Shown here: positions 1 to 56,493 of the stretch, piece after piece
Position numbering within the stretch: the stretch's first letter is position 1
How the letters are laid out: every line of letters starts with the position of its first letter
Assembly: GCA_025061805.1 (NCBI GenBank)
Contig: JANWZV010000001.1
Span: 60,498 to 116,990, forward strand
Direction of reading: 5' to 3'
Origin: Candidatus Dojkabacteria bacterium
GTDB taxonomy: Bacteria > Patescibacteriota > Dojkabacteria > J137
DNA length: 56,493 bases
Notes under the pieces: generated by a model
The model's input: only the letters and a program-made list of their open reading frames with translations
The model's database searches: none
Told to the model about the DNA's origin: nothing
Translations under genes and position numbers: made by a program

Positions 1-734
1 AAAGTTCTTTGTTTTGGTAATCTATTGAAGAAACATAATTTTCTTGTATAATCCTTCGTTAATACCAAAGAAATTCTATTTATTAGATATGGTATATCAT
101 ATCCCGTCGAGTTCCATCCGCTGATTACGTCTGCATCTTGAATTGCTTCTAAAAATGTTTTCAATAGAATTTTTTCGTTTTCACATATAAAAATATTTGT
201 AAAAGAATTGTTTATGTTTTCTATGTCTTTTTCTGTTATTTCTCTGACAATGTTTTCATTTTCATCAAGAATTGTCTTCGGTGGTATAACTAACGTAAAT
301 ATTTCTTCTATCCATGACATATAAAAAGATATGGATATTATTTTTGCAAAAGGATCCGAAGGCGATGCATATCCTTTTTCAGGATCCATATCTGCCTCTA
401 TGTCGAAGAATAAAACATTCAATTCTGGACAAGGAGAATTTTTATAGTTTTTTTCGAGGCATTTGAATACCGGATTTATGTCGGATTCATATGTTTTTAT
501 TCCTTTTGATTTCAAAAGTTCCAATTCTTGTTGAAACTTTTTTTTGGATTTGGTAGTAAAAAGCTGCACTCTATTTCCGAATATAGATATATTGTCTCCT
601 TTCGGATCATCATAATAAAAATAATAATCAATGGGATATTCAATTAAATGTTTTTCTCCTTTTTCATCTTTTTCGATGACAAAGATCGTATCGTTTTCGA
701 TAAATGAATTTATGTATGAATTTTTTTTTGTCAT
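1..734 (-). CDS. Family B DNA polymerase (T4 gp43-like), N-terminal and 3'-5' exonuclease region; the gene runs off the left edge
   Basis: My own minus-strand translation from ATG 734..732 gives MTKKNSYINSFIENDTIFVIEKDEKGEKHLIEY... It carries an ExoI-type NVLFFDIEAD and an ExoII-type ISGWNSTGYDIPYLINR. There is no stop before position 1, which is why the ORF track omits it. Its ATG overlaps the TGA of the upstream ORF (ATGA). Confidence 0.8.
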   Translation of the reverse strand, partial: MTKKNSYINSFIENDTIFVIEKDEKGEKHLIEYPIDYYFYYDDPKGDNISIFGNRVQLFTTKSKKKFQQELELLKSKGIKTYESDINPVFKCLEKNYKNSPCPELNVLFFDIEADMDPEKGYASPSDPFAKIISISFYMSWIEEIFTLVIPPKTILDENENIVREITEKDIENINNSFTNIFICENEKILLKTFLEAIQDADVISGWNSTGYDIPYLINRISLVLTKDYTRKLCFFNRLPKQRT

Positions 735-1063
735 TCTGCGTTTTTTGTTGTTTTTTCTCTATTCTGTAAAATATCCAAAACGGTTTCCAGGATATCTATT
801 TTATTTTTTTCGTTTTCGAAGTAATCTATTATTTTTCTTTTGTTGTATCCAGCTTTCAATAATTTTTGAAGTTCCGATTTTCTTATGTCCAGCATCATCG
901 ATTCTTCGTTCAACATATCCTTTAAAGATTCTTTTAATGTGTCGATCTGCTCTAATATTTCTATTCCGTGATTCAATGCTCTTTTCAATCTATTCTTTTT
1001 TTCTTCTTCATTTAGTATTTCGATGATCGTGTTTTTTTCTTTTTTCCTGAATTTTCTTTTCAT
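731..1063 (-). CDS. Hypothetical K/E-rich helical protein (110 aa) lying between two DNA polymerase gene pieces
   Basis: The ORF is preceded by GAAAGGAG plus a spacer and ATG (reverse complement of 1060-1078). Its stop overlaps the start of the polymerase N-terminal ORF. I recognised no motif. Confidence 0.55.
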   Translation of the reverse strand: MKRKFRKKEKNTIIEILNEEEKKNRLKRALNHGIEILEQIDTLKESLKDMLNEESMMLDIRKSELQKLLKAGYNKRKIIDYFENEKNKIDILETVLDILQNREKTTKNAE

Positions 1064-1078
1064 TTTTTTTCTCCTTTC

Positions 1079-1447
1079 TTAAATTTCCAATTTTATTAGA
1101 ATGTCGTTTTCTTTTATTTCACTCGGTTTTATTGTTAAAATTTCCCCTTCTCTCTTGATTATCAAAGAATGGTCTTCAGTTACTTTTATTTCATCTCCTT
1201 CCTCTGACACGATTTTATAAATTTTTTTATCTGTTTCATGAGAATATAGATATTCTATCTTTTTTTCTTCTATTTTGCGAGTTTTCTTATTGAAAGAAAA
1301 TGTTTTTATATCTTCATTAAAATTCAAAAAATATTGTTTTTGATTATATGAAATTTTATTTTTGAACAATTTTTCCAATTCAGATATTTTTATTTTTGAT
1401 ATGTGATCTTTGATCTTTATGTAAATTTCTGAATCTTCCGTAACTGA
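1079..1447 (-). mobile_element. Intein N-half (Hint blocks A and B) at the pol-c site YGDTD|S; apparently a split intein because the ORF terminates after block B
   Basis: From Ser121 (codon 1447..1445) the sequence reads SVTEDSEI, matching block A (C/S-x-x-x-D-S/T-x-I/V). Further on, KVTEDHSLII matches block B (TxxH). The ORF stops about 30 aa after block B, a similar distance to that in known naturally split IntN halves. No IntC or thumb domain follows. Confidence 0.65.
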
Positions 1448-1807
1448 ATCCGTGTCGCCGTAAATTATTGTTTTGCCATTATGGTTGTAGTTGTTCGTCA
1501 ATATTTCGTTTATTTTTGACATCATATGGTATATTATTTTTCTACCAGAAAACGTAACTGATTGTCCAATTCTTTCATCATATACTCTACAGCCCTTGTT
1601 CAATATAGAACCATATAATGAATTTAACAGTATTTTTCTTATGTATTGTTGTTTATCATAATATTCGTGTTGTTTTTCTATTATATTTTTATTATTGAAA
1701 ATCAATAGTTTATTTTCTTTATCCAAAGATATTTCCAAATTTTTCATTAATTCTAAGGTTTTTTCTTTATTTCTATTTTTGATATGATAAAGCAAATCTT
1801 TTATCAT
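1079..1807 (-). CDS. Family B DNA polymerase internal fragment (fingers plus palm motifs B and C) fused to an intein N-terminal half
   Basis: Motif B is YIRKILLNSLYG and motif C is IIYGDTD. They align with T4 gp43 NRKILINSLYG and AAGDTDS. The ORF starts near the beginning of the fingers region and ends with TAA at 1079-1081. Confidence 0.8.
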   Translation of the reverse strand: MIKDLLYHIKNRNKEKTLELMKNLEISLDKENKLLIFNNKNIIEKQHEYYDKQQYIRKILLNSLYGSILNKGCRVYDERIGQSVTFSGRKIIYHMMSKINEILTNNYNHNGKTIIYGDTDSVTEDSEIYIKIKDHISKIKISELEKLFKNKISYNQKQYFLNFNEDIKTFSFNKKTRKIEEKKIEYLYSHETDKKIYKIVSEEGDEIKVTEDHSLIIKREGEILTIKPSEIKENDILIKLEI

Positions 1808-1818
1808 CTGAATTTTTT

Positions 1819-1826
1819 AATAAATA
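1819..1826 (+). promoter_or_regulatory. AATAAATA motif (T4-type late promoter-like) upstream of the gp25-like gene
   Basis: Exact 8-mer located 19 nt before ATG 1846. Confidence 0.4.
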
Positions 1827-1845
1827 TTAGAATATAAAAATAATT

Positions 1846-9431: not shown

Positions 9432-10523
9432 ATGTATTTGTCTTTTGAAGAAATTAAAGAAGTTCATTTAGAAATAACATCCAAATGTAATTTATTGTGC
9501 CCATCATGCGCAAGGACGATAACATTTTATGATGAGGGATATTTACAAAAACATTCTGATAAAAAAAACATAGATATAACGATTTCCGATATAAAAAAAA
9601 TTTTTTCGGTAAAATTTATTGATAACTTAGAATGTGTCATGTTTTGTGGAAATTATAGTGAACCTATTGCAAACAATGATATATTGGAAATATTGGAATA
9701 CTTCAAGATAAACAAAAATATAAAGATCATTCTTTTTACAAATGGAAGTTTAAGAAACAAGGATTTTTGGAAAAGTTTGTCTCGTTTTTTTTCTGATGAA
9801 AGAAGTGGGGTCATTTTTTCCATCGATGGTCTAAGCGATACCAACAAGATTTATAGGATAAATTCTAATTTTGAAAAAATAATGGAAAATGCAAAGACTT
9901 TCATAGAAAACGGCGGCTACGCTGTTTGGGATTTTTTGGTTTTTGAACACAATAAACATCAGATAGAAGAAGCCGAGAAATTGGCAAAGAAAATAGGATT
10001 CAAGCAAATAAGATTCAAACAATCTCATAGATTGATTTCAAAAAATTTGCAGAAAAGTAATATATTTAAGTATAAGGAAAATATAGAAAAAATAAAAACA
10101 GTCAAAATTGTCGATGATTATGAAGAAAAAATGAAAAAAATTGAAAAGATATATGGATCTTATGAAAATTACAAAAAAAATTGTCCCGTGAATTGTAAAA
10201 CAAGAAACAGAAAATCTATATATATAGATTTTTTGCAAAGAGTGTGGCCGTGTTGTTGGTTTGCTGCCAATTTCATGCACCACGATAATGTGGAAACAGA
10301 AGAACTGGAAAAATTATACTGTTATTATGATAATGATTATGATTTCAATTCTCTGAAGAAAAAATCATTAGAAGAAATATTGAATCATGATTTTTTCGTG
10401 AATTATCTCGAAAAATCCTGGATGGACAAAAATTTTAGACATTCTGTTTGCGGTAAAGTTTGTGGAAATATAGTAGAATTTTCTTCCAACGATAAAACCA
10501 ATAGAAAGGTTAAAGTTTTATGA
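9432..10523 (+). CDS. Radical SAM enzyme with a Cys-rich (SPASM/twitch-like) C-terminus
   Basis: CNLLCPSC is a CX3CX2C motif. The C-terminal cysteines are CPVNC...PCCW...C...SVCGKVCG. Confidence 0.8.
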   Translation: MYLSFEEIKEVHLEITSKCNLLCPSCARTITFYDEGYLQKHSDKKNIDITISDIKKIFSVKFIDNLECVMFCGNYSEPIANNDILEILEYFKINKNIKIILFTNGSLRNKDFWKSLSRFFSDERSGVIFSIDGLSDTNKIYRINSNFEKIMENAKTFIENGGYAVWDFLVFEHNKHQIEEAEKLAKKIGFKQIRFKQSHRLISKNLQKSNIFKYKENIEKIKTVKIVDDYEEKMKKIEKIYGSYENYKKNCPVNCKTRNRKSIYIDFLQRVWPCCWFAANFMHHDNVETEELEKLYCYYDNDYDFNSLKKKSLEEILNHDFFVNYLEKSWMDKNFRHSVCGKVCGNIVEFSSNDKTNRKVKVL

Positions 10524-17811: not shown

Positions 17812-18822
17812 ATGAGAATAGAATATGAAAGAAAAATAGATTTTTCCGATGTCTTGATAAAACCGAAAAGATCGACATTATCGTCAAGAAAAGAAGTAGA
17901 TATTTATAGAGAATTTGTTTTTCCTCATTCGAATATAAAATATTTTGGCGTTCCTATATTAGCCTCGAACATGGATACCATAGGAACAATAGAAATGGCG
18001 AATTCTTTGGAAAAAGAAGGTTGTGGTGTTGTTCTTCATAAGTTCCATGATAACGATGTGTTGTATGATTTTCTAAAATCTAAATACGATCAAGGAATAT
18101 TTTATCATTGGGTTTGCACCGGTATAACCAATGATAATTTTGAAAAAATTAAGGAATTAAATTCGAGAATAAATTTAAAATATGTTTGTTTGGATGTTGC
18201 AAATGGATATCAAGAAACATTTGTAAAGGCTGTACAAAAATTTAGGGATTTATTGAAGGATTCAGTTATCATGGCCGGAAATGTGGTAACCGGAGATATG
18301 ACGGAAGCCTTGATTCTTGCTGGTGCGGATGTTGTTAAGGTAGGAATAGGTTCGGGAAAATGTTGCACTACCAGAAAGATGACGGGGGTTGGATATCCTC
18401 AATTGTCAGCCGTTATTGAATGTTCCGATGCAGCACATGGTTTGAGGGGCTTAATTTGTTCTGATGGTGGAATAAGAGAACCTTCTGATCTTGTAAAAGC
18501 ATTTTGTGCTGGTGCTGATTTTTGTATGATAGGAAGTTCTTTCGGCGGTCATGATGAATGTGGAGGTCAAATAATCGAAAGAGATGGAAAGAAATATATG
18601 CAAATTTATGGCATGAGTTCTGAGATTGCGCAAATAAAATATTATGGAGAAAAACCAAAATATAGAGCGTCGGAAGGTATATGTTTGGAAGTAGAGTACA
18701 AAGGAAAAGTTTTAGATACTTTGCGGGAATATTTAGGGGGTTTAAGATCTGCCATGACATATATTGGAGCAAGAAAATTAAAAGAAATGTCAAAAAGAGC
18801 AACATTTATTGTAATAACATAA
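17812..18822 (+). CDS. guaC: GMP reductase
   Basis: Colinear with E. coli GuaC across the full length: MRIE...DVLIKPKRSTL, CLDVANGY, GNVVTGDM, ADVVKVGIGSGKCCTTR, GVGYPQLSAVIEC, DGG, YGMSS, YRASEG and LGGLRSAMTY. Confidence 0.9.
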   Translation: MRIEYERKIDFSDVLIKPKRSTLSSRKEVDIYREFVFPHSNIKYFGVPILASNMDTIGTIEMANSLEKEGCGVVLHKFHDNDVLYDFLKSKYDQGIFYHWVCTGITNDNFEKIKELNSRINLKYVCLDVANGYQETFVKAVQKFRDLLKDSVIMAGNVVTGDMTEALILAGADVVKVGIGSGKCCTTRKMTGVGYPQLSAVIECSDAAHGLRGLICSDGGIREPSDLVKAFCAGADFCMIGSSFGGHDECGGQIIERDGKKYMQIYGMSSEIAQIKYYGEKPKYRASEGICLEVEYKGKVLDTLREYLGGLRSAMTYIGARKLKEMSKRATFIVIT

Positions 18823-19635: not shown

Positions 19636-20994
19636 ATGGATTTAGAAAAAAAAGCAAAAATAGATTCCATATCAAAGAGTTTTTGTGCTGCAAAATGGAC
19701 ACAAGTGACCATACATCTTGGAAATGGTTATAATCATTCTTGTCACCATCCGGGATTACATAAAATAAGCATTGAAGAAATAAAGAATAATCCATCTGCT
19801 CTTCATAATACTAGATACAAGTTAGAGAGAAGAAGAGAAATGATGGAGGGTATAAGACCAAAAGAATGTGATTATTGTTGGAGAGTAGAAGATTCAAATG
19901 AAAAAAATGTTTCTGATAGATATCTTAAATCTTTTGAATCTTGGAGTTTCCCCTATATTGATGATATAATCGCCGATCCTTTAAACGAAAAATTCAATCC
20001 AAAATATGTAGAAGTTTCCTTTAGTAATCAATGTAATTTCAAATGTTCTTACTGTGCTCCTTATGTTTCATCGAAGTGGCAAGAAGAAATAAAAAAATAT
20101 GGTCCTTACCCCACATCAAAAAAATTCAATTCCATAAATCATTTGACAGAAGAAATAATTCCCAATAATTCATATAATCCGTATATTGATGTTTGGTGGA
20201 AATGGTTTCCTGATCTTGTTAAAAATCTTTTATATCTGAGGGTCACTGGTGGCGAACCTTTTTTGAATAAGAACACAATCATTCTTTTGGAGAAAATAAT
20301 AGAAAATCCGCAAAAAGAATTGACTTTGAGTTTAAATTCTAATTTTTGTGTTCCTGAAAAAAACATAAATCGTATTTTGGAGTTGTTGAAATACATAAAT
20401 GATAATAAATTGGTAAAAAACATAGAATTATATACTTCTTGTGAGGCGTACGGAGAAAAGGCGGAATATATAAGGTGGGGATTGAATTATGAAACATGGA
20501 AAAATACGGTAAGATTTTTCAATGAAAATTTGAGAAACATAAAAATTATAATAATGTCGACATTTAATTTATTATCCATATCCAGTTATGTGGATTTCCT
20601 CAGAGATGTATTGATCTTAAAAAAGAGTTTTAAGGAAGAATCACATCTTTTGATAGACACACCTTATTTGAGATATCCAACACATCAGACAGCTTGGTTA
20701 TATGATAGGGATTTAGCGGAAAAATATATAGACGATATTGATGATTATTTTTCCGAAAATTTAGCTGATTTCAGTGAAAAAAAATTTTTTGCTTATGAAT
20801 ATACGAAATTTAAACGTGTTGTGAATTTAATAAAATCAGAATGGAACAGAGAAAACTATGATCAGATGTATTTAGAAGACAAAAAAGACTTCATCAGATT
20901 CGTGGATGAACATGATCGAAGAAGAGGATCGAATTTTTTGAAGACTTTTCCGGAAATGGAAACTTTTTATAATAGATACAAAGAAAAATTGTAA
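19636..20994 (+). CDS. Radical SAM enzyme (452 aa) with a Cys-containing N-terminal extension
   Basis: CNFKCSYC is a CX3CX2C motif. VTGGEPFL is a GGEP SAM-binding motif. The N-terminal FCAAKW...SCHHP and CDYCW cysteines suggest auxiliary clusters. Confidence 0.8.
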   Translation: MDLEKKAKIDSISKSFCAAKWTQVTIHLGNGYNHSCHHPGLHKISIEEIKNNPSALHNTRYKLERRREMMEGIRPKECDYCWRVEDSNEKNVSDRYLKSFESWSFPYIDDIIADPLNEKFNPKYVEVSFSNQCNFKCSYCAPYVSSKWQEEIKKYGPYPTSKKFNSINHLTEEIIPNNSYNPYIDVWWKWFPDLVKNLLYLRVTGGEPFLNKNTIILLEKIIENPQKELTLSLNSNFCVPEKNINRILELLKYINDNKLVKNIELYTSCEAYGEKAEYIRWGLNYETWKNTVRFFNENLRNIKIIIMSTFNLLSISSYVDFLRDVLILKKSFKEESHLLIDTPYLRYPTHQTAWLYDRDLAEKYIDDIDDYFSENLADFSEKKFFAYEYTKFKRVVNLIKSEWNRENYDQMYLEDKKDFIRFVDEHDRRRGSNFLKTFPEMETFYNRYKEKL

Positions 20995-23047: not shown

Positions 23048-25360
23048 TTATAAAATAACTATTTGATCGTTCTTAATATCTAAAATGATATTTTCTTTTT
23101 TGTTATTTCCTAAAATCAAATATTTACTCAAAGGAATCTTTATTTTTCTATCGATTATTCTATTTATATTTCTTGCACCGTATTTTTCTTCAAAACTTTG
23201 TTCCGCAATATTTTTCATTAGGTTATCCGTAATTGATATTTTTATGTTTTTTTCTGCCAAAAGTTCATTAATTTCTTTTATTCTTTTTTCTATGATCTTT
23301 TCTACTATATTTTTATTGATTTTATTGAATAAAAGTATATCATCCAATCTGTTTCTGAACTCTGGTGAAAAATAATCCATTAAGATATTTTCCAGTTTTT
23401 CTTCTTTTTGGTCATGAAAGAATCCAACATTTTGTTTTTCATATCTGTCTGAACCAGCATTCGATGTCATAACAAGAACAATGTTCGAAAAATTTACTTT
23501 TTTTCCCTTTGATGAGGTTAGTACACCATCATCCATGATTTGCAAAAGAATATTCAAAATATCTGGATGTGCTTTTTCTATTTCGTCTAAAAGTAGTACA
23601 GCACACGGATTTTTTTCTATTTCAAATATCAATTTTCCTTCAGATTCATGACCTATATAACCAGGAGGAGAACCTATCAACTTTGATACCGAATGTTGTT
23701 CCATATATTCACTCATATCGAATTTTATCAAAGGACAATTCAAAATTTTTGCTATATTTCTAGCTGTTTCTGTTTTACCTACTCCAGTAGGACCCAAAAA
23801 TAATAAAGAACAATAAGTTTTGTTTTTCTCTCTTAATCCAGCTTTTGATACCAATAAATTTTCATATATTCTTTCTAATATTTCGTCTTGACCGAAGATA
23901 TTTTCTTTTAATTTTTCTAGACATTGATCAAAATGAATATCTTGATTTCTTATGGAACTGGAAGGAATTCTTAAAATCTTCGCCAATTCATCTATGATGT
24001 GATCTTCTGTGATTATGATTTTGTTTTTGCTTGTATGAAAAGTAGATATGCTTGAACAGGTTTGATCCAACAAATCAAAAGCTTTATCTGGAAATAATTT
24101 ATTGTGCATGAATTTTTTACTGTAATATACTATTTTGGATATTATTTCTTTTGTCAAAACAACATTATGATGTTTTTCATATAAATGTTTTAATTTCAAT
24201 AATATTTCTTCTGTTTCTTTTTCCGATGGCTCAAGAATGTCTATTTTTTGAAATCTTCTCAGAAAGGCTTTATCTTTTTCCATATAACGATGAAACTCTT
24301 CATCTGTCGTAGCACCAATGTTTTTTATCTTTCCATTCAATAGATATGGTTTTATCATATTTGATATGTCCTGGGAATTTGGACCAGAAGATGAATAGCC
24401 TATTAAGTTATGTATTTCATCAACAAAAAGTATTATATTTTCATTCTTTTCGAGTTCTTGAAATATGTTTTTTATTCTTTCTTCGAGTTCTCCCCTATAT
24501 TTGGAACCAGAGATGAGAGAAATCAAATCTAGGCTTGCTATTATTTTATTTCTCAATTTTTGTGAGCATTTTTTATTTACTATTTTATAAGCTAACCCTT
24601 CCACAAGTGCCGTTTTCCCTACTCCCGGCGGTCCGACCAAAATTACGTTTGATTTTTTTCTTTTATTCAAGATTATCTCCATTTGCTTTATTTCTTCTTC
24701 TCTACCTATTATCGGATCTATTTTTTTGGCTTTGACCAGATCGTTCAAATTTGTGCAATATTTCCATATTTTAGATTGATTTGTCTGATCTTTTTTTGTT
24801 CTTTTATTTTCTATTTCTTCTATGAATTTAAGAGCAGATTCATAAGTTAAATTTTCTAAGCTTATTTTTTCATTTTCGGCTTTGTTTTTATCTATATGAT
24901 TCAAAATATGTTCTTTACTTAAGCCATATTTTTTCAGCAAACGTGAAGAAAAAGTTTCTTCCATTTGAAGTATGGAATTTAATATTTCCAACAAGACATA
25001 ATCTTTTGTGAAATTTATATTAGAAAAAAAATGAATGAGAGTAATCATTCTTTGAAAATGAAATTTGAAATTATTGGAAAAAATGATTATTTTTGCTTTG
25101 TTTTCTTCGTTTTGTTTTATATGTTTGAAATACTCTTCCAGTTCTTTTTTTAGTTCTTCGGTATTTGCATTTACCTCTTTTTTAAAGAAAGAATCTATTT
25201 CATTGAATTTAAGAATCGTATACAAAAGGTGTTCCGAACTTATGGAATAATTTTCGAAATGAGTGGCAACCATAAGAGAATTCTTGACTAATTTATCCAA
25301 GAATTCAAAACAATCTAAGTTTTCGAATTCTTTCAAGCTTAGATTATTTGTTATCGTCAT
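23048..25360 (-). CDS. clpA: ClpA-type Clp/Hsp100 double AAA+ unfoldase (770 aa)
   Basis: Colinear with E. coli ClpA. Walker A motifs are VGPPGVGKTALVEGLA (D1) and LGPTGVGKTE (D2). Other matches are KYRGELEER, RRFQKIDI, PDKAFDLLD, SPPGYIGH, LLLDEIEKAHPDI and FRNRLD. There is no long ClpB-type middle domain. Confidence 0.85.
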   Translation of the reverse strand: MTITNNLSLKEFENLDCFEFLDKLVKNSLMVATHFENYSISSEHLLYTILKFNEIDSFFKKEVNANTEELKKELEEYFKHIKQNEENKAKIIIFSNNFKFHFQRMITLIHFFSNINFTKDYVLLEILNSILQMEETFSSRLLKKYGLSKEHILNHIDKNKAENEKISLENLTYESALKFIEEIENKRTKKDQTNQSKIWKYCTNLNDLVKAKKIDPIIGREEEIKQMEIILNKRKKSNVILVGPPGVGKTALVEGLAYKIVNKKCSQKLRNKIIASLDLISLISGSKYRGELEERIKNIFQELEKNENIILFVDEIHNLIGYSSSGPNSQDISNMIKPYLLNGKIKNIGATTDEEFHRYMEKDKAFLRRFQKIDILEPSEKETEEILLKLKHLYEKHHNVVLTKEIISKIVYYSKKFMHNKLFPDKAFDLLDQTCSSISTFHTSKNKIIITEDHIIDELAKILRIPSSSIRNQDIHFDQCLEKLKENIFGQDEILERIYENLLVSKAGLREKNKTYCSLLFLGPTGVGKTETARNIAKILNCPLIKFDMSEYMEQHSVSKLIGSPPGYIGHESEGKLIFEIEKNPCAVLLLDEIEKAHPDILNILLQIMDDGVLTSSKGKKVNFSNIVLVMTSNAGSDRYEKQNVGFFHDQKEEKLENILMDYFSPEFRNRLDDILLFNKINKNIVEKIIEKRIKEINELLAEKNIKISITDNLMKNIAEQSFEEKYGARNINRIIDRKIKIPLSKYLILGNNKKENIILDIKNDQIVIL

Positions 25361-47870: not shown

Positions 47871-49133
47871 TTAGGTAAACATATATACTCTTCTATTTAT
47901 ATTCCCGGGTCCTATATTGAATAAATCCATTCTTAATACATATTGTTGATTAACACTTCCTGGAACAAAATAAACATCTCCATTACCGGCAACAACAGCG
48001 TCGGTGAAAGCACCAGAACCTGGAGCATTACCAAATGGTATAACTGTGTTAGTTACCGGGTCATAAATTTCAAATATAGTTGAATTGAAAGGAACGAGGA
48101 GTATTCTTCCATTCGGCAGTACGACTGAAGAAAAATAAGAATCGGCAGATGTATTGTTGACTGCTGGCCCGGTTGTTATCGTATTTGTCTGTGGATCAAA
48201 AATTCTTATGTTTGTTGCGCCTCTAGGAGTTAAAAATATTCTTCCGTCTGGCATTAAAGTGAGTTTTCCTATATCATCTGTAAAAGGTGGAGTAACATCA
48301 GAAAAAGTAGTAGAATTCGTTATCGGAAGGTTCGCTACGGTTATGACACAGTTTGTTGCAGAAACAGGATTTTTTATTATGATTCTTTCATTATCTAGTG
48401 TTGAACATGCCGTTCTTCTAGGCAAAAGAGATGGAGTAAGTCCAAATGGAGAAAAATATGATGGACCGACTTGTTGATATTTTGGTGAAGCATTTTCATC
48501 GAAAAAAATAAATCTAGAAAAATTTTGTGGGATAAAATAATGTATTATATTACTTGTAGATCCATTAATCTTTACGAAATATTTTACCATTAATGCGCTT
48601 TTTTCTGTTCCTGGTATTGATGTAGATTCTAATATAGATTGATTATTTTGTAAATTATAAGCTTGTGAAAAATTATGAGAAACTAATACACTCATGGGAG
48701 AATAATTTTCTGTTATACATCCGCCATAAAAATCTAACGGAGAAGAAGCAAAAGTAAAAATTCCTGTTATAAATGTTTTTGTTTCTGGTTCTATCATACA
48801 TGTATTGTTAAACGTAAGATTCGCTGCAAAATATATTATATTACCATTTAAACATGCACCATTAGAATATTTCAATGGTGTCGTTATTCCACCAGGAAAA
48901 GTTATTGATGGTAATATTTGTATATAATAACTTGTTCCGAAAAAACGATAACTTTCGTATAAAATAGTATTGTTCGATGTTTCTCCGGGTCTATCATAGA
49001 CTCTTGCTTGTTTTCCTTTATAAAGCCTAGATATGGGAAAAACAGTTCTAACAAGATTTATGTTTGTTTCTTTACTCCTTATTATTATACTAGTTTTTCT
49101 CTCAGAAAGTATAGATGATATGGATCTTGACAT
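47871..49133 (-). CDS. Repeat-containing (beta-propeller-like) putative virion protein, paralog A (420 aa)
   Basis: It has repeated blades such as LMPDGRIFLTPRGATNIRIFDPQTNTITTG, VLPNGRILLVPFNSTIFEIYDPVTNTV and VAGNGDVYFVPGS. Confidence 0.45.
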   Translation of the reverse strand: MSRSISSILSERKTSIIIRSKETNINLVRTVFPISRLYKGKQARVYDRPGETSNNTILYESYRFFGTSYYIQILPSITFPGGITTPLKYSNGACLNGNIIYFAANLTFNNTCMIEPETKTFITGIFTFASSPLDFYGGCITENYSPMSVLVSHNFSQAYNLQNNQSILESTSIPGTEKSALMVKYFVKINGSTSNIIHYFIPQNFSRFIFFDENASPKYQQVGPSYFSPFGLTPSLLPRRTACSTLDNERIIIKNPVSATNCVITVANLPITNSTTFSDVTPPFTDDIGKLTLMPDGRIFLTPRGATNIRIFDPQTNTITTGPAVNNTSADSYFSSVVLPNGRILLVPFNSTIFEIYDPVTNTVIPFGNAPGSGAFTDAVVAGNGDVYFVPGSVNQQYVLRMDLFNIGPGNINRRVYMFT

Positions 49134-49141
49134 TTATTGAT

Positions 49142-49149
49142 TATTTATT
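49142..49149 (-). promoter_or_regulatory. AATAAATA motif upstream of the gene starting at 49133
   Basis: The plus strand reads TATTTATT. The motif lies 8 nt before the ATG and overlaps the stop of the upstream paralog. Confidence 0.3.
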
Positions 49150-50386
49150 AATCTGTATTCAAAAAGGGACTAGTTAAGATATGTATATTTGATTTTAAGT
49201 TATAGCTATTGAAGAAAAACGATAGTATTCTGGAGTTTGTAATAATAATTAATTGATTTTTGTCTGTTACTTTTACACTTAATAAAAATTCTAACGGAAC
49301 TTTGGTAAAAGATAAATTAGATGAATTATATTCTATTATGTTTGATTTTATGATAGGATGCGACACTTGGAAAATAATATTATTTGCATCTTCAGAAATT
49401 CCTATATTAGTAAAAATTCCTGGTATAGTAGCTATTTTGAAAATATTACCTATAAAAGACGGATCTATGGGGAAATTTGGAGTTCTGAATCTTTTGTTGA
49501 TGTAATCATAAATTCTCATATTCGAAGCAGAACTACTTAAGATAAAAAGATTTCCTCCTTCTAAAGGAGAAAAAAACGATGTTCTATAATTCTGTCCTGG
49601 TGGGAGAGATATGTTTGGTGTCGTAAGTGTATCGTTTATTGGATCATAAATCAAAAAATAATTATGTATCGTTGTGTTGTTTGAAAAAAATATAACCTCT
49701 CCTGTTGGCAAAAGTTGACTATTTATGAATGGGTGTGGTGTTGGAAACGTAACAGACGGCGTAGAATAAGCATTAGTGAAAGGATTATAAATCAATAATC
49801 TGTCGTTTAATCTAGGACAATGCAATACTCTTCCATCCAATAAAAGAATTCCTTTTACAAATGAATTAAACGGTGCGGCAAAAGTATAAGATGGAGTAAA
49901 AACTGTGTTATTGAATGGGTTATATATTACGGAATATGAAGATTGATTGGGAACGTTATATACTCTTCCGTCTTTCAATAAAACAGTAGAAGAAAATCCG
50001 TCTGTTCCGAAATAAGAACCACTGGGAGTAGATAATGTATAAGTTGTTGTATCGAAAATGAGAGCATTTGTGTTGGAACCTGGCCCAATGAATATATTGC
50101 CATTTTTTAATAAAACACTGCTTCTGTAGTTCCCGAATGTTCCAGATATTTGTCTGTTTAAATCTGGAATACAATTAAATCGACCTAAATTATCTACAAA
50201 TAAAGAATCAAAATTAAAATAATTGCTTGAACAAATTGCTCCCTTATCGTATAGGGATGATGCAAAAGATGCGGCAAAATTATTATATATTCTAGGATTA
50301 TTGGAATCCCAACCAAAAATGGCATGGCCATTCCATTTGTCGTAAAATACAGTAGAATAATTCAAAAAAGTATTCGCTGTTGTCAC
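49148..50386 (-). CDS. Repeat-containing (beta-propeller-like) putative virion protein, paralog B (412 aa, GTG start)
   Basis: It has the same blade motif: LLKNGNIFIGPGSNTNALIFD, LLKDGRVYNVPNQSSYSVIYNPFNNTV, LLLDGRVLHCPRLNDRLLIYNPFTN and LLPTGEVIFFS...LIYDPINDT. Confidence 0.45.
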   Translation of the reverse strand: MTTANTFLNYSTVFYDKWNGHAIFGWDSNNPRIYNNFAASFASSLYDKGAICSSNYFNFDSLFVDNLGRFNCIPDLNRQISGTFGNYRSSVLLKNGNIFIGPGSNTNALIFDTTTYTLSTPSGSYFGTDGFSSTVLLKDGRVYNVPNQSSYSVIYNPFNNTVFTPSYTFAAPFNSFVKGILLLDGRVLHCPRLNDRLLIYNPFTNAYSTPSVTFPTPHPFINSQLLPTGEVIFFSNNTTIHNYFLIYDPINDTLTTPNISLPPGQNYRTSFFSPLEGGNLFILSSSASNMRIYDYINKRFRTPNFPIDPSFIGNIFKIATIPGIFTNIGISEDANNIIFQVSHPIIKSNIIEYNSSNLSFTKVPLEFLLSVKVTDKNQLIIITNSRILSFFFNSYNLKSNIHILTSPFLNTD

Positions 50387-50400: not shown

Positions 50401-50468
50401 ATAAAATAAGTTGTAGATGGCTTTTGTCTGAATTCAAAAATTTCTTTATTGGTGATTTATTGACAAAA

Positions 50469-50476
50469 AATAAATA
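50469..50476 (+). promoter_or_regulatory. AATAAATA motif upstream of paralog 1 (ATG 50484)
   Basis: Exact 8-mer located 7 nt before the ATG. It is conserved at the same offset in paralogs 2 and 3. Confidence 0.4.
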
Positions 50477-50483
50477 TATCAAA

Positions 50484-52436
50484 ATGCTCATAAAAGAAAT
50501 ACTTCTTGAATATAATTTACAGAATCTTTTGTCTTTGTTTTCTGAAAAATACGAATTGATCCAAAGAAGGGATTTTTCTAATAAACATAAAACATTGGAA
50601 AATTTTTTAAAATCTATAGAAGATTTTCTTAGAAAAGAAAATAAGTTTCAATTTATTGATCCATATGTGAAATGGATAGTACAGAAATATGTAACCAATA
50701 ATCTTGGATTGTATGAAGATATTTTAGGTAAAGTCATACCGGGATTACTAAGATATGATTCCTTGAAAAGAAAAAACAAACTGAAATCCGAACACAAGGA
50801 TATTAATCAGATAAAAAATATAAATCAATTGTTAGATATTTTAGATGAATATAAAGAAGAAGAAACAAAAAGTATATCTGAAAAAGAAAAAGAAATTGAA
50901 CAAAATTTTTATAAGAATGGGGAAGCTATTTTGATATATAATGATAATAATTTGAAAGTTGTCGTTCCCAAATCAAAAGCAGCGTCTTGTTTTTTTGGAA
51001 GAAACACCAGATGGTGCACTGCTGCTTCTACTTCAAAAAATTATTTTAACTTCTATAATAAAAAAGGGCCTTTATATATAATATTGGATAAGAAGAAGAA
51101 TAAAAGATTTCAATTTCATTTCGAAACGAAACAATTCATGGACGAAAAAGATCAACCAATAAGAATAGAAGATTTCAAGACAAATTATCCGATATTATCT
51201 AATATCTTTCGTGAAATCGAGAAAAAGAACTATAAAACTAAAGTTTTTTACGATATATCGGAATTGACATCCAGTGATATTGCTCGTATGTTAACTGATA
51301 CTTGGACAATGTCTATTTCTGATTATGCATTGAGTATTCTAAAAAAAGATTCTAGCTTCATAGATGATATTTTCATAAAAACTTTTTATAAAACACTAAA
51401 AAGTAAGAAACATAATGATGAAAAAAGTGTATCTTTTCGAAAATTTCTTGGTTTTTTGCTCGAAGGAGATACAACAATAAAACAAGAGCAAGAAGATTTA
51501 TTTCTTAGACTTTTTTTTACTGATGGAGATTTTATCAATGAATTGATCAAAAATTCAAATTTTTTATCACAAATATTGAAAAAATATGAACATTTTTTCA
51601 AAAAAGAAGAAATAAAGGAAAAAATAAAAAAAATTAGTCTTGATGCTTATCTTAAAATATATTTGTATGAATATGATTCATCAAGAAAAAGTGAAATAGA
51701 AAAGATAGTGAACGATAATGAGTTATTGTCAACGCCCGCTTTACAATTTTACGTCATAAAAACTTCTATTTTTAGGGACATGTTTGTCGATAATTTGGAC
51801 ATTTTTATTAAATTTTGTGAAAATTTGTTGAAATGGAATGATACATACTTAATAAACAAATATATAGAACTCATTTTTTCTGTTTATGATGAATATAATA
51901 AAAAAAGAGTAAATAGTCAAAAATTGGATAAAATTTTTTCTGAGCTGTTGAAGATATCGTTTAACACCAGTCATAAAGAAAAAATTTTTCAACAAGTTAA
52001 AGATATGGAGTTCTTTAGGAAAAATTTCGAAAGTATATTTTTTGATTTATTGAAGGATTTCAAATTCATGCTTTTATTTGATTATGATTTTTCCAAGAAT
52101 GAATTTTTTAGAATTCTCAAAAAAGCAGCTAAAACTCCTGAAATGTTCGATAATATTTTAGGAATAGTAGATATTGTAAAAGTTTTTATGAAAATAAACA
52201 GAGAAAAAAAATTTACTAAAAAAGAGAAATTTTCTTTTATTGATACTTTATTTAAAATGAATCCGAATTTTCATAATAACGTTTTAAAAAATATAGTAGA
52301 GGCAAACGAAAAAGAAAATGTTTTTGAAGATTTGTTTAAAACAGATACTTTCAAGGATTATTTGAAAAATAAAATTTTTGTCGGAGATCATAAAAATAAA
52401 ATAAATCCATATTATATAAATTATTTCAATCAGTAA
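50484..52436 (+). CDS. NTRWC-module family protein, paralog 1 (650 aa)
   Basis: The start was set at ATG 50484 by homology with paralogs 2 and 3 (MLIKEILLEYNLQNLLSLFSEKY). The module motif is SCFFGRNTRWCTAA...GPLYIILDKKKNKRFQFHFETKQFMDEKDQPI. Confidence 0.7.
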   Translation: MLIKEILLEYNLQNLLSLFSEKYELIQRRDFSNKHKTLENFLKSIEDFLRKENKFQFIDPYVKWIVQKYVTNNLGLYEDILGKVIPGLLRYDSLKRKNKLKSEHKDINQIKNINQLLDILDEYKEEETKSISEKEKEIEQNFYKNGEAILIYNDNNLKVVVPKSKAASCFFGRNTRWCTAASTSKNYFNFYNKKGPLYIILDKKKNKRFQFHFETKQFMDEKDQPIRIEDFKTNYPILSNIFREIEKKNYKTKVFYDISELTSSDIARMLTDTWTMSISDYALSILKKDSSFIDDIFIKTFYKTLKSKKHNDEKSVSFRKFLGFLLEGDTTIKQEQEDLFLRLFFTDGDFINELIKNSNFLSQILKKYEHFFKKEEIKEKIKKISLDAYLKIYLYEYDSSRKSEIEKIVNDNELLSTPALQFYVIKTSIFRDMFVDNLDIFIKFCENLLKWNDTYLINKYIELIFSVYDEYNKKRVNSQKLDKIFSELLKISFNTSHKEKIFQQVKDMEFFRKNFESIFFDLLKDFKFMLLFDYDFSKNEFFRILKKAAKTPEMFDNILGIVDIVKVFMKINREKKFTKKEKFSFIDTLFKMNPNFHNNVLKNIVEANEKENVFEDLFKTDTFKDYLKNKIFVGDHKNKINPYYINYFNQ

Positions 52437-52585: not shown

Positions 52586-52590
52586 TACAT

Positions 52591-52846
52591 CAAGCCATGA
52601 AGCTGCATACCTTACTGTGAAAATTTAACACCAACAACGCATGTCGCTCGTACCTGAAATCGGTACATTGGCCGCATTGACCTCGTATGCGATCATTGCG
52701 GCTCCGTAGACAACGCCACTCCTGTCAAGGGACGCACCGGATTCTGGCGCTGCCGTGCCTGCGACAAGCAGTTCAGGGTCGCGGCGGTTCACTTCCGAGT
52801 GTTGCTCACGGTTGCATCTGGCTACTAAAAGCGATAAGCGCGAGAA
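52591..52846. other. GC-rich compositional island of unknown nature (candidate structured RNA/5' leader, foreign DNA fragment, or assembly artefact)
   Basis: By my hand count, 52631-52850 has 125 G+C of 220 nt (about 57%). The 100 nt at 52441-52540 have 20 of 100 (20%). Nothing else in the window has this composition. Confidence 0.5.
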
Positions 52847-52847
52847 C

Positions 52848-52855
52848 AATAAATA
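52848..52855 (+). promoter_or_regulatory. AATAAATA motif upstream of paralog 2 (ATG 52863)
   Basis: Exact 8-mer located 7 nt before the ATG, immediately after the GC island. Confidence 0.4.
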
Positions 52856-52862
52856 CATTAAA

Positions 52863-54818
52863 ATGCGCATAAAAGAAATACTTCTTGAATATAATTTACA
52901 GAATCTTTTATCTTTATTTTCTGAAAAATACAAGTCAATACAAAAAAAAGACAGTTCTAACAAATATGAATCATTAGAAGAATTCATTAAATCTATTGAA
53001 GAACCACTTAGAAAAGAAAATAAGTTTCAATTTATCGAACCATATATGAAATGGATAGTACAAAGATATGTAACCAATAATCTTGGATTGTATGAAGATA
53101 TGTTCGGTAAAACTGTTCCTGGATTATTAAAGTACGATATTCTGAAAAGAAAAAACAAACTTAAACAAGAGCATAAAGATGTGAATAAAATAAAAAATTT
53201 AAATCATCTGCTAGATATATTGAATGAATATCAGAGTGAAGATACGAGAAGCAATACCGAAAAAGAAAAAGAAATTGAACAAAATTTTTATGACAATGGA
53301 GAAGCTGAATTGATTTATAATGATAGCAATTTCAAGATTGTTATTCCTAAATCGGAAAGAGCGTCTTGTTTTTTTGGAAAAAATACCAGATGGTGTACTG
53401 CGGCAACCGAGTCGGAAAATTTATTCAATAGATATAATGAAATGGGAAATTTGTATATATTGATTGATAAAAAAAATAAAAGAAAATTTCAATTTCATTT
53501 CGAGGCAGCGCAATTTATGGATGAAAAAGATGAACCAATAGATCTAATAGATTTTGAAAAAAATTATAATTACACAGTTCCTATTTTATCAAAATTGGCA
53601 AAAAAACATAATAGCTTTTTCTTTGTTCCTTTAAAAGATTTAAATGAAAAACAATTAGAAGAATTATGTGCCAATTATACATGGTATTTTGTCGAAAAAA
53701 TAAATTTAGAAAAATATAAACATAAGAATTTAGAACATATCATAATCAAAAGTATTCCTGTTCTCATTGATTCCGATTATGTGTTTTTGTTATTGAAAAA
53801 TTTTCCAGATTTGCTTAAAAATGAAATGTTTGTAACCAGGGCTATAAAAAAACTTACCCGTAAAAGTGATATAAACAAATTCATAAAAAAGATAAATTTA
53901 ACTTTTGAAGAAGCGGTCAAATTTATTATAAAGGACGAAGATGTTTATTTGGCATTGAAGGATTTTTTTCCTGAGTTAAAAAAAGACAAAGTTGTTGAAT
54001 TTTTATTGGAAAAAAATCCTAGAGTGATTGATTTTATCGACATAAGTGAACTATCAGAAAATATGATCAAAAAAATATTGAAGAAAAATGAAAAAAAGAT
54101 AAAAAGTTATTTGTTCGATTTGCAAATGAAATCGAATCTTCGTTCTTTTTTATTAAAAATAGAAGATAAAGAATTATTAAAGAGTTTTTTTAATTTATTT
54201 CCATCTTATGAATATCTTTATGTGCTTGAACCTGGATATTTAGATGATAGAAAGGTTTATGATTTCATAATCAATACAGATTTACCAAATGATACTCAAA
54301 TAAATTCAAATGTCATACAATATTTTCAAAGATACATAGATGATTTCATCAAAAATTCTTTTTATAAACCTTTTGTATATATGGATGTTTCTGATTTTAT
54401 GGAAGACCAACTATTCAAGATAATAACAAATGATAAAGTAGAGGATTCTTATGCGATATATTATTTCGGCAGAATAAAGAATATTGAAAAAATAACCGAT
54501 AAAAACATTTATAATAAGATATTGAATTATCTTATAGATAATAATATATCTAGGTTTTTTCAACTTATGAATTTCACAAGATATTCCGCGCGCTATGAAG
54601 AATATGATCCTCTTTCTTATCGTTTTCTGAATTTTGAAAATAATATTGAAATATTGAAAAAATTAACTAAAACAAATGAAGAAAGTCTTCAAAAAGTAAA
54701 AAAAGATTACATAATAAAGTTTTTAAAATTATTGAAAAAGTCTAACAAAAAATCTTTTGATTATTTGATAAACAACAATGAGTATTTCTCGGAAATTTAT
54801 GAAAATTTTCTTGTTTGA
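52863..54818 (+). CDS. NTRWC-module family protein, paralog 2 (651 aa)
   Basis: The start was set at ATG 52863 (MRIKEILLEYNLQNLLSLFSEKY) by homology. The track's GTG start at 52755 would add 36 aa encoded by the GC island. The module motif is SCFFGKNTRWCTAA...GNLYILIDKKNKRKFQFHFEAAQFMDEKDEPI. Confidence 0.7.
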   Translation: MRIKEILLEYNLQNLLSLFSEKYKSIQKKDSSNKYESLEEFIKSIEEPLRKENKFQFIEPYMKWIVQRYVTNNLGLYEDMFGKTVPGLLKYDILKRKNKLKQEHKDVNKIKNLNHLLDILNEYQSEDTRSNTEKEKEIEQNFYDNGEAELIYNDSNFKIVIPKSERASCFFGKNTRWCTAATESENLFNRYNEMGNLYILIDKKNKRKFQFHFEAAQFMDEKDEPIDLIDFEKNYNYTVPILSKLAKKHNSFFFVPLKDLNEKQLEELCANYTWYFVEKINLEKYKHKNLEHIIIKSIPVLIDSDYVFLLLKNFPDLLKNEMFVTRAIKKLTRKSDINKFIKKINLTFEEAVKFIIKDEDVYLALKDFFPELKKDKVVEFLLEKNPRVIDFIDISELSENMIKKILKKNEKKIKSYLFDLQMKSNLRSFLLKIEDKELLKSFFNLFPSYEYLYVLEPGYLDDRKVYDFIINTDLPNDTQINSNVIQYFQRYIDDFIKNSFYKPFVYMDVSDFMEDQLFKIITNDKVEDSYAIYYFGRIKNIEKITDKNIYNKILNYLIDNNISRFFQLMNFTRYSARYEEYDPLSYRFLNFENNIEILKKLTKTNEESLQKVKKDYIIKFLKLLKKSNKKSFDYLINNNEYFSEIYENFLV

Positions 54819-54916: not shown

Positions 54917-56493
54917 ATGTTAATAAGAAAAATACTTCTAAAATTTAACTTACGAAGTCTTTTGTTGTTTTTTTCCGAAAAATATAAGCAAGTACAACAA
55001 AAAGATCATTCCAACAAATATAAATCACTTGAAGAATTTATTAAGTCAATCGAAGAACTGCTTAGAAAAGAAAATAAATTCCAATTCATAGAACCATACA
55101 TAAAATGGATAGTACAGAGATATGTAACTAATAATCTTGGATTGTATGAAGATGTGGTAAGTAGAGTCATACCAAGATTATTGAAGTATGATTCTTTGAA
55201 AAGAAAGAATAAATTAAGACCGAATCACAAAGACATAAGTCAAATAAAAAACATAGATCAGTTATTGGATGTCTTAGACGAATATCAAGAAGAGAAAACC
55301 GATTCAAAGAGTGAAGAAGAAAAAAGGATAGAACAAGAATTTTATTCATCTGGCGAAGCAGAATTGATTTATGATGATCATGAAATAAAAATAGTAATTC
55401 CTAAGACAGAAAGAGCAAATTGTTATTTTGGAAGAAATACAAGATGGCGCACTGCTGTCAAATATTCTAATAATTATTTTAGTGATTATAATAAAAAAGG
55501 ACCTTTATATATTATATTAATTAAAAAAGAAAACAAAAGATATCAATTTCATTTTGCAACAGATCAATTTAGAAATGAACAAGACAAATCCATAAATCCT
55601 AATTTATTGGCAGATAAATATCCTATATTATGGGAAATATTCACTCCTATAGCAGAAAAGTACAAGACGATATTTTTGAACAAAAATCCCTCGGAAGAAT
55701 CACAAATAAAAAGCATAAAAAGATGGCCCTATGATTTCATTTACATAAAAAATCCAAGCGAAGGAGCTCAATTGGAAGCAATTGAACATTCTCCCTATTT
55801 TATTAGACATATAAAAAATCCGAGTGAAAAAGTTCAATTAGCAGCAGTAAGAAAAAATGGTCTTACTATAAAATTCATAAAAAACCCATCTGAAGATATT
55901 CAATTGGAAGCAGTCAGAAACAATGGACTTGCTTTGCAATATATAAGAAATCCATCTGAAAAAGTTCAATTAGAAGCAATTAGAAAAAATCCATATGCTA
56001 TAGAATTTATAGAAAATCCAAGCGAAGAATTTCAGTTGGAAGCAATAAATAAAACGCCGTATGTTTTAAAATATATTGAAAATCCATCTGAAAAAGTTCA
56101 ATTAAAAGCAGTCAGGCAAAATAGTTCTTTTATCAAGATTATAAGAAACTCAAGTGAAAAAGTACAATTGACGGCAATAAATGATAATCCAATTGCTATA
56201 GTATTTATTAAAAATCCGATGGAAAAAGTTCAATTGGAAGCAGTTAAAAAAGATGCAACTGTCATAAGATATATCGAAAATCCTAGTGAAAAAGTTCAAT
56301 TGGAAGCAGTTAAACGGGATGAAGCTTTCATAAGATATATCAAAAATCCGAGTGAAAAAGTTCAGCTGGAGGCAGTCAAAAAATATGGAACTCTCATAAA
56401 ATATATTAAAAATCCGAGCGAAGAAGTTCAACTAGAAGCAGTAAAACAAAACAAAGATGCAATAAAATACATCGAAAACCCGTCAAAAAAGGT
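54917..56493 (+). CDS. NTRWC-module family protein, paralog 3, with a C-terminal array of 22-aa NPSExVQLEAV repeats; the gene runs off the right edge
   Basis: My own translation is MLIRKILLKFNLRSLLLFFSEKYKQVQQ...NCYFGRNTRWRTAV...GPLYIILIKKENKRYQFHFATDQF..., followed by (I/Y)IKNPSEKVQLEAVKxxxxxIxY repeated many times. It is absent from the ORF track because it is open at the edge. Confidence 0.7.
   Translation, partial: MLIRKILLKFNLRSLLLFFSEKYKQVQQKDHSNKYKSLEEFIKSIEELLRKENKFQFIEPYIKWIVQRYVTNNLGLYEDVVSRVIPRLLKYDSLKRKNKLRPNHKDISQIKNIDQLLDVLDEYQEEKTDSKSEEEKRIEQEFYSSGEAELIYDDHEIKIVIPKTERANCYFGRNTRWRTAVKYSNNYFSDYNKKGPLYIILIKKENKRYQFHFATDQFRNEQDKSINPNLLADKYPILWEIFTPIAEKYKTIFLNKNPSEESQIKSIKRWPYDFIYIKNPSEGAQLEAIEHSPYFIRHIKNPSEKVQLAAVRKNGLTIKFIKNPSEDIQLEAVRNNGLALQYIRNPSEKVQLEAIRKNPYAIEFIENPSEEFQLEAINKTPYVLKYIENPSEKVQLKAVRQNSSFIKIIRNSSEKVQLTAINDNPIAIVFIKNPMEKVQLEAVKKDATVIRYIENPSEKVQLEAVKRDEAFIRYIKNPSEKVQLEAVKKYGTLIKYIKNPSEEVQLEAVKQNKDAIKYIENPSKK
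55685..56493 (+). repeat. In-frame tandem coding repeats with a 66-nt (22-aa) period, at least 12 units, reminiscent of DUF4116-type repeats
   Basis: AATCC(N)AG(C/T)GAA (NPSE) recurs at 55685, 55751, 55817 and onward with a 66-nt spacing. The repeat continues to the window edge. Confidence 0.85.

Follow-up and report, generated by a model that had tools for sequence, protein, structure and literature searches.

A phage family B DNA polymerase encoded in pieces in scrambled gene order, with an intein half at motif C

The stretch of DNA analysed here, 56,493 nt of contig JANWZV010000001.1 (positions 60,498 to 116,990) in an assembly labelled Candidatus Dojkabacteria bacterium (GCA_025061805.1) and hereafter called the window, encodes at its left end pieces of a family B DNA polymerase (PolB) related to gp43 of phage T4, and the order of these pieces is scrambled: the gene for a middle piece lies upstream of a small open reading frame (ORF) of the phrog_12534 family that is followed, on the same strand, by the N-terminus of the polymerase. 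The middle piece runs, within motif C, into the N-terminal half of a split intein (IntN). We consider it probable that the window derives from an AT-rich (~27% GC) relative of the PA5oct/Rak2-type jumbo phages, in which the gp43-like PolB would be made from at least three genes by a combination of association at the fingertips and trans-splicing, the middle piece having been relocated. So what speaks for the reality of this arrangement, and how could a functional replicase be assembled from it?

The ORF that runs from 1807 to 1079 contains motif B (KILLNSLYG) and passes from motif C straight into intein block A (IIYGDTD|SVTEDSEI, with the bar marking the junction), and block B (VTEDHSL) follows further downstream. 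The initial annotation, which was made from the letters of the window, had recognised both polymerase motifs and the switch to the intein at DTD|S, and here the sequence and Pfam agree, with DNA_pol_B (1.6e-11) and Intein_splicing (3.4e-9) each scoring above the curated cut-off. The PHROGs family phrog_27191 ('DNA polymerase', 230 positions), which has the same architecture, matches the middle piece nearly end to end (1.1e-22), and residues 53-127 of this piece align with residues 555-630 of RB69 gp43, that is, with the second finger helix and motifs B and C. When the middle piece is aligned with 18 homologous stand-alone middle pieces (19 sequences in all), the polymerase residues K58, N62, S63, Y65, G66 and D120 are invariant, and so are S121, the first residue of the intein, and T210, D212 and H213 of block B. 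The AlphaFold (AF2) model of the middle piece has a mean predicted local distance difference test score (pLDDT) of 71.8 and is confident over IntN (~80-88 over residues 121-240) and over the fingertip head; the palm strands, whose partners are missing from this piece, are poorly modelled.

The intein half itself has these features of a class 1 split intein of the PolB motif-C allele: the serine of block A directly follows the N-extein at the known insertion point, the YGDTD|S junction is the same as in PA5oct/MIJ3, block B carries the TxxH signature, and IntN stops at the canonical split site, which gives N-terminal halves of about 100-125 amino acids (aa). Its closest solved relative is the fused cysteine-less split intein Aes123 PolB1, from the polymerase of an Aeromonas T4-like phage (PDB 9HTH, E 1.4e-11), and the second sequence match in the structural database is PI-PkoII, an archaeal PolB intein (2.4e-8), while a Foldseek search with the IntN model returned mini-inteins, 9HTH and the NeqN/NeqC complex of Nanoarchaeum equitans PolB. 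The end of IntN is level with residue ~123 of 9HTH, where the IntN of Aes123 PolB1 ends, and with the ends of the 18 homologous middle pieces, in keeping with the proposal of the initial annotation that this is a naturally split IntN and not a contiguous intein. The TAA at 1081-1079, with which the protein terminates as ...KLEI, 27 aa past block B, is not a sequencing error, a possibility that the annotation had raised, because the 18 homologues and the Aes123 IntN end there and because the stop is conserved in P0002 and P0003, the close relatives introduced below; it also reads identically in an independent Logan contig. Published PolB split inteins of this type consist of an IntN of 115-120 aa and a C-terminal half (IntC) of 39-46 aa, and trans-splicing in vitro has been reported for those of Aes123 PolB1, CP21 PolB1 and a metagenomic PolB (LCGC14) (PMC11923092; PMC12707363). 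Judging by sequence, the clade to which the window belongs supplies another natural cysteine-less IntN.

The N-terminal ORF leaves the window at its left end. Its Exo I (DxE) and Exo II motifs, a Pfam match of the windowed part to DNA_pol_B_exo1 (4.1e-15) and a match to RB69 gp43 (1e-31) mark it as part of a gp43-like family B polymerase. The Logan contig that encodes exactly the same 242-aa middle piece (SRR15826902_5912, or L003; 10,963 nt) is identical to the window over the overlap and reaches 1.2 kb further left, and the ORF can there be read to its C-terminal end, ...RWYKERKEMQNIAKICQNIYVNGSMKLSDEDFEWLNSILDENKI. It stops before motif B and has no motif B or motif C of its own. The N piece is, then, not a complete polymerase, and therefore the ORF at 1079..1807 is not a relic copy beside an intact gene, the outcome that the initial annotation had put forward as the main threat to its own reading. 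Palm motif A, finger motif B and palm motif C are all present but spread over two genes, with A on the N piece and both B and C on the middle piece. Residues 524-556 of the N piece align with residues 456-488 of RB69 gp43, which form the first finger helix, and the multiple alignment places the break between the two pieces within a fingertip insertion of 80-90 residues, which PA5oct has in unbroken form and which the intein-less relatives lack. Three other metagenomic loci (L004, L005 and L006) are broken at the aligned position where the window is broken.

Three assemblies, namely the window, L003 and a diverged relative, have the middle piece first, then the small ORF and then the N piece. 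The homologue search yielded only two close relatives of the middle piece, P0002 and P0003 (65-66% identity), the latter of which is encoded on the 73-kb Logan contig SRR27730049_529698 (L004), which comes from a different sample. On this contig, the middle piece (242 aa) precedes an ORF of 99 aa, the N piece (582 aa), an ORF of 248 aa and glycosyltransferases, in this order, and the opposite strand carries a gp25-like gene and a 1160-aa wedge gene, just as beside the middle piece of the window. The start and the stop of the middle piece are kept, and the permuted order described in the initial annotation, with the middle piece ahead of the N-terminal one, thus recurs in a locus whose proteins are 65-75% identical to those of the window. 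Comparison of the two loci by the Nei-Gojobori method gave ratios of nonsynonymous to synonymous substitution rates (dN/dS) of 0.07 (N piece), 0.10 (extein portion of the middle piece), 0.27 (IntN) and 0.46 (small ORF), values that are approximate because dS between these two members of the clade is saturated (1.1-2.6). These ratios indicate that the polymerase pieces are held by purifying selection in their scrambled order, and such selection, together with the order shared by both lineages, argues that the pieces are neither relics nor an assembly artefact.

Which part has moved? A gene of the phrog_12534 family lies immediately upstream of PolB in PA5oct (EST35_0310), KP13-7, SCTP-2 and L004, as it lies ahead of the N piece in the window, and two genes upstream in L005. 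Because the same family precedes PolB in all of these, the pair of small ORF and PolB N-terminus is ancestral, and the middle-piece gene would be the relocated part, now located between this pair and the divergently transcribed baseplate genes. No meaningful repeats that could mark a transposition were found flanking the middle-piece gene. The features of the locus are collected in Table 1; the ribosome-binding site behind the TAA, the lysine- and glutamate-rich ORF and the polymerase N-terminus with its exonuclease motifs, which the initial annotation had listed, were all recovered.

Table 1. Features of the polymerase locus (positions in the window unless the contig is named)
Feature	Position	Strand	Remarks
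PolB N piece, first 244 codons	1..734	-	Exo I FDIEAD, Exo II GWNSTGYDIPY; remainder left of the window
Full N piece, 588 aa	L003:9041-10807		Motif A DINSLYPS; ends ...ILDENKI before motif B
Small ORF, 110 aa, K/E-rich	731..1063	-	phrog_12534 (1.5e-11); conserved neighbour upstream of PolB in the phage lineage
Shine-Dalgarno sequence GGAG	1071..1074	-	7 nt ahead of the ATG of the small ORF (1063); read from the sequence
Middle-piece gene, 242 aa	1079..1807	-	Motif B on the second finger helix and motif C on the palm strands, between the fingertip head and IntN
IntN, 122 aa, cysteine-less	1082..1447	-	Residues 121-242; Ser1 in block A (SVTEDSEI); ends at the canonical split site
Intein block B, VTEDHSL	1183-1163	-	Within IntN
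N-extein portion of the middle piece	1448..1807	-	Residues 1-120; aligned with RB69 gp43 residues 555-630
Motif C	1462-1448	-	Y116-D120 of the middle piece
Motif B	1636-1610	-	K58-G66 of the middle piece
Divergent intergenic region, 38 nt	1808..1845	.	Between the middle piece and a gp25-like baseplate gene (1846-2259, +)

The middle piece, the small ORF and the N piece probably form one operon and are co-transcribed, given that no terminator-like site was detected in 1-2400 and that the gaps are 15 nt between the middle piece and the small ORF and -4 nt between the small ORF and the N piece, the stop of the former and the start of the latter (734) overlapping as ATGA. The divergent intergenic region includes a TTGACA-17-TAATAT promoter match on the minus strand, the number of such matches being not above chance.

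The piece that should complete the enzyme, with IntC and the thumb, was sought. The initial annotation had stated that the window contains neither, and both types of search agree: tblastn with the C piece of PA5oct gave a best E-value of 4 in the 56-kb window, and a hidden Markov model (HMM) built from 120 C pieces reached no better than 1.4 when all six reading frames were searched with --max. By the same methods (tblastn and HMM --max), the C-terminal palm (KKRY) and thumb of a gp43-like PolB were missing from the window, from L003 and from L004 within 10 kb on either side of the locus. Stand-alone IntC-thumb genes as such are abundant, with 3424 clusters at E<=1e-10 in a profile search with four C pieces; the 120 of these clusters that were listed include none on the 116,990-nt source contig or on the 73,019-nt contig of L004. 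Among the 120 C pieces retrieved, the 30 most extreme by composition all keep HN followed by S or T, and by analogy with related phages (...ILVHN|S-x-YF), the cognate IntC is predicted to end in HN, with Ser at position +1. The junction comes in two neighbouring types in the stand-alone IntC-thumb genes that were read, ...HN|S-x-YF and ...HN|TDS-x-YF; the latter implies a second site of intein insertion in motif C, two residues further upstream (YGD|TDS).

Several leads were rejected. In L004, the 248-aa ORF that follows the N piece is not a divergent thumb, since it has no match to the C-piece HMM; a weak IntN-like tblastn match at 23936-24031 falls within a ClpB-like AAA+ gene and is due to chance; P0120 turned out to belong to an unrelated two-piece locus; and a synthetic query shifted towards AT-rich composition was dropped after a simulation on middle pieces in which the clade gained no better rank. 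An exact 69-mer of L003 is absent from IMG/VR, JGI metagenomes and GTDB genomes. IMG/VR yielded no relative of the clade closer than 49% identity, the JGI metagenomes yielded none, and the GTDB genomes gave only an irrelevant archaeal match.

How unusual, then, is this locus? According to the initial annotation, no case like this is known to have been described, which holds for the scrambled order and the uncoupled C piece but not for the rest, given that a PolB of three polypeptides is annotated in Aeromonas phage Aes508 and that the homologous intein has been characterised biochemically; the split intein and the three-piece design are common and already known. In the Aeromonas T4-like phages (Aes508, Aes123 and relatives), as in the window, PolB comes from three polypeptides, with a fingers break that involves no intein between motifs A and B and a Ser1 split intein at YGDTD|S whose IntN is about 115-122 aa long (tblastn identity 29-30%). 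The genes of Aes508 are, however, colinear and adjacent, separated by endonuclease genes (gp43A / Seg-like / gp43B-1 with N-intein / VSR-like / gp43B-2 with C-intein), whereas in the window, the middle piece comes before the N piece, there is no endonuclease gene, and a C piece would have to lie no less than 10 kb off, and beyond 56 kb on one of the two sides. Put differently, the window shares the break position of a split PolB of the gp43A/gp43B type but reverses its colinear order, in which A is upstream of B.

The closest cultured relatives, PA5oct/MIJ3, KP13-7 (Alcyoneusvirus), Campylobacter phage F379 and SCTP-2 (36-43% identity), have PolB inteins with the same insertion site and the same blocks A, N2, B and N4 as the window; for MIJ3, the split PolB intein and its blocks have been described (PMC6892783). 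Unlike the window, PA5oct/MIJ3, KP13-7 and F379 have a colinear two-piece arrangement (N...IntN / endonuclease gene or small ORFs / IntC...C), which in PA5oct/MIJ3 consists of an 804-aa protein with IntN, a Hef-like endonuclease and a 379-aa IntC-thumb protein, and SCTP-2 has a single colinear ORF with a contiguous mini-intein. The fractured genes that have been described carry the halves of a split intein on separate genes, as the phage of the window does, and these halves flank a free-standing homing-endonuclease gene; L005, L095, L097, PA5oct and Aes508 have this layout, whereas neither an endonuclease gene nor the C half lies beside the middle piece of the window. According to the fractured-gene model (Dassa et al., 2009, PMC2677866), the halves become uncoupled in the genome once the endonuclease is lost (step IV), the examples being cyanobacterial DnaE and N. 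equitans PolB. These uncoupled precedents are cellular and two-piece, in contrast to the system of the window, which belongs to a virus and has three pieces, two of them neighbours whose order is reversed.

A survey of related loci leads to the same assessment. Some 130 related loci are colinear. The N, middle and C segments are in this order, wherever the contig is long enough, in the 80 intein-less IMG/VR loci that were picked by similarity to the N piece (47-49% identity); the N segment is upstream of the middle segment in 47 of 47 intein-bearing IMG/VR loci, and the C piece starts within ~2 kb of the end of IntN in all 41 of those with enough downstream sequence. Stand-alone middle pieces account for 6 of the intein-bearing IMG/VR loci and for ~33 of 150 when the best representatives, clustered at 50% identity, are considered. 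The metagenomic three-piece loci L005, L009/L010, L095/L096, L097 and L098 are colinear with the C piece adjacent, and L006-L008 have the order N piece, middle piece, with no C piece within 10 kb. Among the loci compared, the reversed order is confined to the clade of the window, and an uncoupled C piece occurs only in this clade and in L006.

Two of these loci show further peculiarities. In L097 (9046-11269, +), the first break follows the exonuclease domain (293 aa), after which come a 422-aa palm-fingers-IntN protein, an endonuclease-like gene of the DUF723 type and a C piece of 315 aa, so that the fission points in this polymerase family are diverse. In L006 (19114-19872, +), the C-terminal region of an intein (...LASHN|T) is fused to a segment that, by eye, resembles a terminase-large-subunit-type ATPase, and this phage may hold a second intein.

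A scheme for the assembly of the enzyme can be outlined along the following lines. The N piece supplies the N-terminal and 3'-5' exonuclease domains along with the first finger helix and palm motif A; the middle piece supplies motif B on the second finger helix and motif C on the palm strands, and continues from YGDTD|S as IntN; and the third piece would carry IntC followed by the remaining palm (KKRY) and the thumb. The tail of the N piece and the head of the middle piece, being the two halves of the fingertip insertion, would hold the two finger helices together non-covalently, in the manner of the gp43A/gp43B split PolB of Aeromonas phages, reportedly a precedent for such assembly of the fingers. 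IntN would then capture the remotely encoded IntC and splice in trans, restoring YGDTD-S-x-YF. With three translation products and one trans-splice, the mature enzyme would be a two-chain polymerase. As for the origin of this system, the endonuclease genes behind both fissions would have been lost and the middle-piece gene relocated afterwards, the loss being what would have made such rearrangement possible, as in step IV of the fractured-gene model; endonuclease genes are still present in L005, L009 (in the gap between N and middle pieces only), L095, L097, Aes508 and PA5oct. The proposal of the initial annotation that the replicase is assembled from at least three polypeptides accordingly stands as far as the distribution of the catalytic segments over separate, selected genes is concerned, with trans-splicing argued from homologues.

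Several points weigh against the scheme. The IntC-thumb gene was not found in the window, in L003 or within +/-10 kb of the L004 locus, and for that reason, trans-splicing in the phage of the window is deduced from homologous systems; non-covalent assembly at the fingertips is modelled on the gp43A/gp43B split; and the saturation of dS limits the precision of the selection estimates. One alternative is that the ORFs are decaying remnants of a polymerase that was broken by mobile elements, with replication carried out by another polymerase or by the host. The disrupted gene order would fit such decay, as would the lack of a C piece in the 56 kb of the window and within 10 kb of the locus in the relative, and related jumbo phages of group 2.2 do carry an extra minimal Pol III alpha (PMC7824862). 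Yet both ORFs are intact in two lineages near synonymous saturation, with dN/dS of 0.07-0.27, all catalytic motifs as well as the intein Ser1 and TxxH are kept along with the positions of start and stop, and the stand-alone middle piece is a recurrent class (the ~33 of 150 representatives mentioned above), so that we regard decay as quite unlikely. An artefact of assembly or binning, that is, a chimeric contig or a collapsed duplication in a genome that is in fact colinear, might be suspected from the metagenomic source and from the paralogues and tandem repeats in the window. This explanation is hardly credible given that the junctions of the middle piece with the gp25-like gene and with the small ORF, and that of the small ORF with the N piece, are identical in the independent Logan assembly and are conserved at 65-75% protein identity in the relative from another sample, and that the small ORF and the N piece overlap by ATGA.

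Another alternative accepts the pieces as functional but dispenses with splicing: IntN and a remote IntC would serve as a high-affinity dimerisation module in a three-chain polymerase complex. There is some precedent for this in the fragmented NrdA of phage Aeh1, which assembles via interaction domains derived from mobile elements (PMC3045599), and it is also relevant that selection is looser on IntN (dN/dS 0.27) than on the extein (0.10) and that the partner IntC, with its expected terminal Asn and +1 Ser, was not found. However, Ser1 and the T-x-x-H of block B are invariant in 19 of 19 middle pieces, the homologous PolB split inteins splice in vitro, and the related C pieces that were read (the 30 compositionally extreme ones of 120) keep HN and S or T; moreover, an unspliced Hint domain would sit within motif C, right at the catalytic aspartates. 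We therefore deem assembly without splicing improbable and prefer trans-splicing of a dispersed, selected polymerase.

Several other features were noted in the rest of the window. A ClpB/ClpA-like double AAA+ chaperone is encoded at 23048-25360 (-) (AAA_2 2.6e-57, ClpB_D2-small), and similar Clp genes lie near PolB in two related metagenomic loci, that of P0120 and L097. Two radical-SAM proteins, one of them with a SPASM domain (9432-10523 and 19636-20994, +), and an IMPDH/GMP-reductase-like gene (17812-18822, +) represent putative auxiliary metabolic genes. At 47871-49133 and 49148-50386 (-), two paralogous ORFs of 412-420 aa lie side by side; they contain weak Kelch-like repeats and may encode fibre or adhesin components; PA5oct has a comparable 'kelch-like' structural protein beside PolB. 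Near the right end, three tandem paralogues (50424-52436, 52863-54818 and about 55300-56493, +) have in common an N-terminal domain (…GRNTRWCTA…QFHF…) that Pfam does not match, and the third, which leaves the window at its right end, contains DUF4116-type repeats of 22 aa that stem from 9.7 tandem copies of a 66-nt unit (55809-56451). A GC-rich stretch of ~260 nt (52590-52850), in this 27% GC genome, immediately precedes the second of these paralogues; it has no Rfam match, and its predicted folding is no better than that of shuffled sequences (z about -0.8 on both strands).

Taking all these observations together, we lean towards the view, with some reserve, that the clade comprising the window, P0002 and P0003 (L004) represents the first viral case of a fully uncoupled, order-scrambled essential replicase, with its pieces partly dispersed over more than 10 kb and brought together by a non-covalent fingertip zipper and by trans-splicing with a remote partner. 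If this is true, the clade would show where the fractured-gene pathway naturally ends when it runs in a virus, and would extend to viruses the stage of genomic uncoupling for which the examples cited in the fractured-gene paper are cellular genes (PMC2677866). It would further mean that, following invasion by homing endonucleases and inteins, the pieces of an essential phage replicase can be shuffled and dispersed and nevertheless stay under selection. Annotation pipelines and PolB phylogenies will miscall genes of this kind as fragments or pseudogenes. Finally, a cysteine-less IntN belongs to a rare class that is sought for protein engineering, and the one encoded here would become usable once its IntC partner is found.

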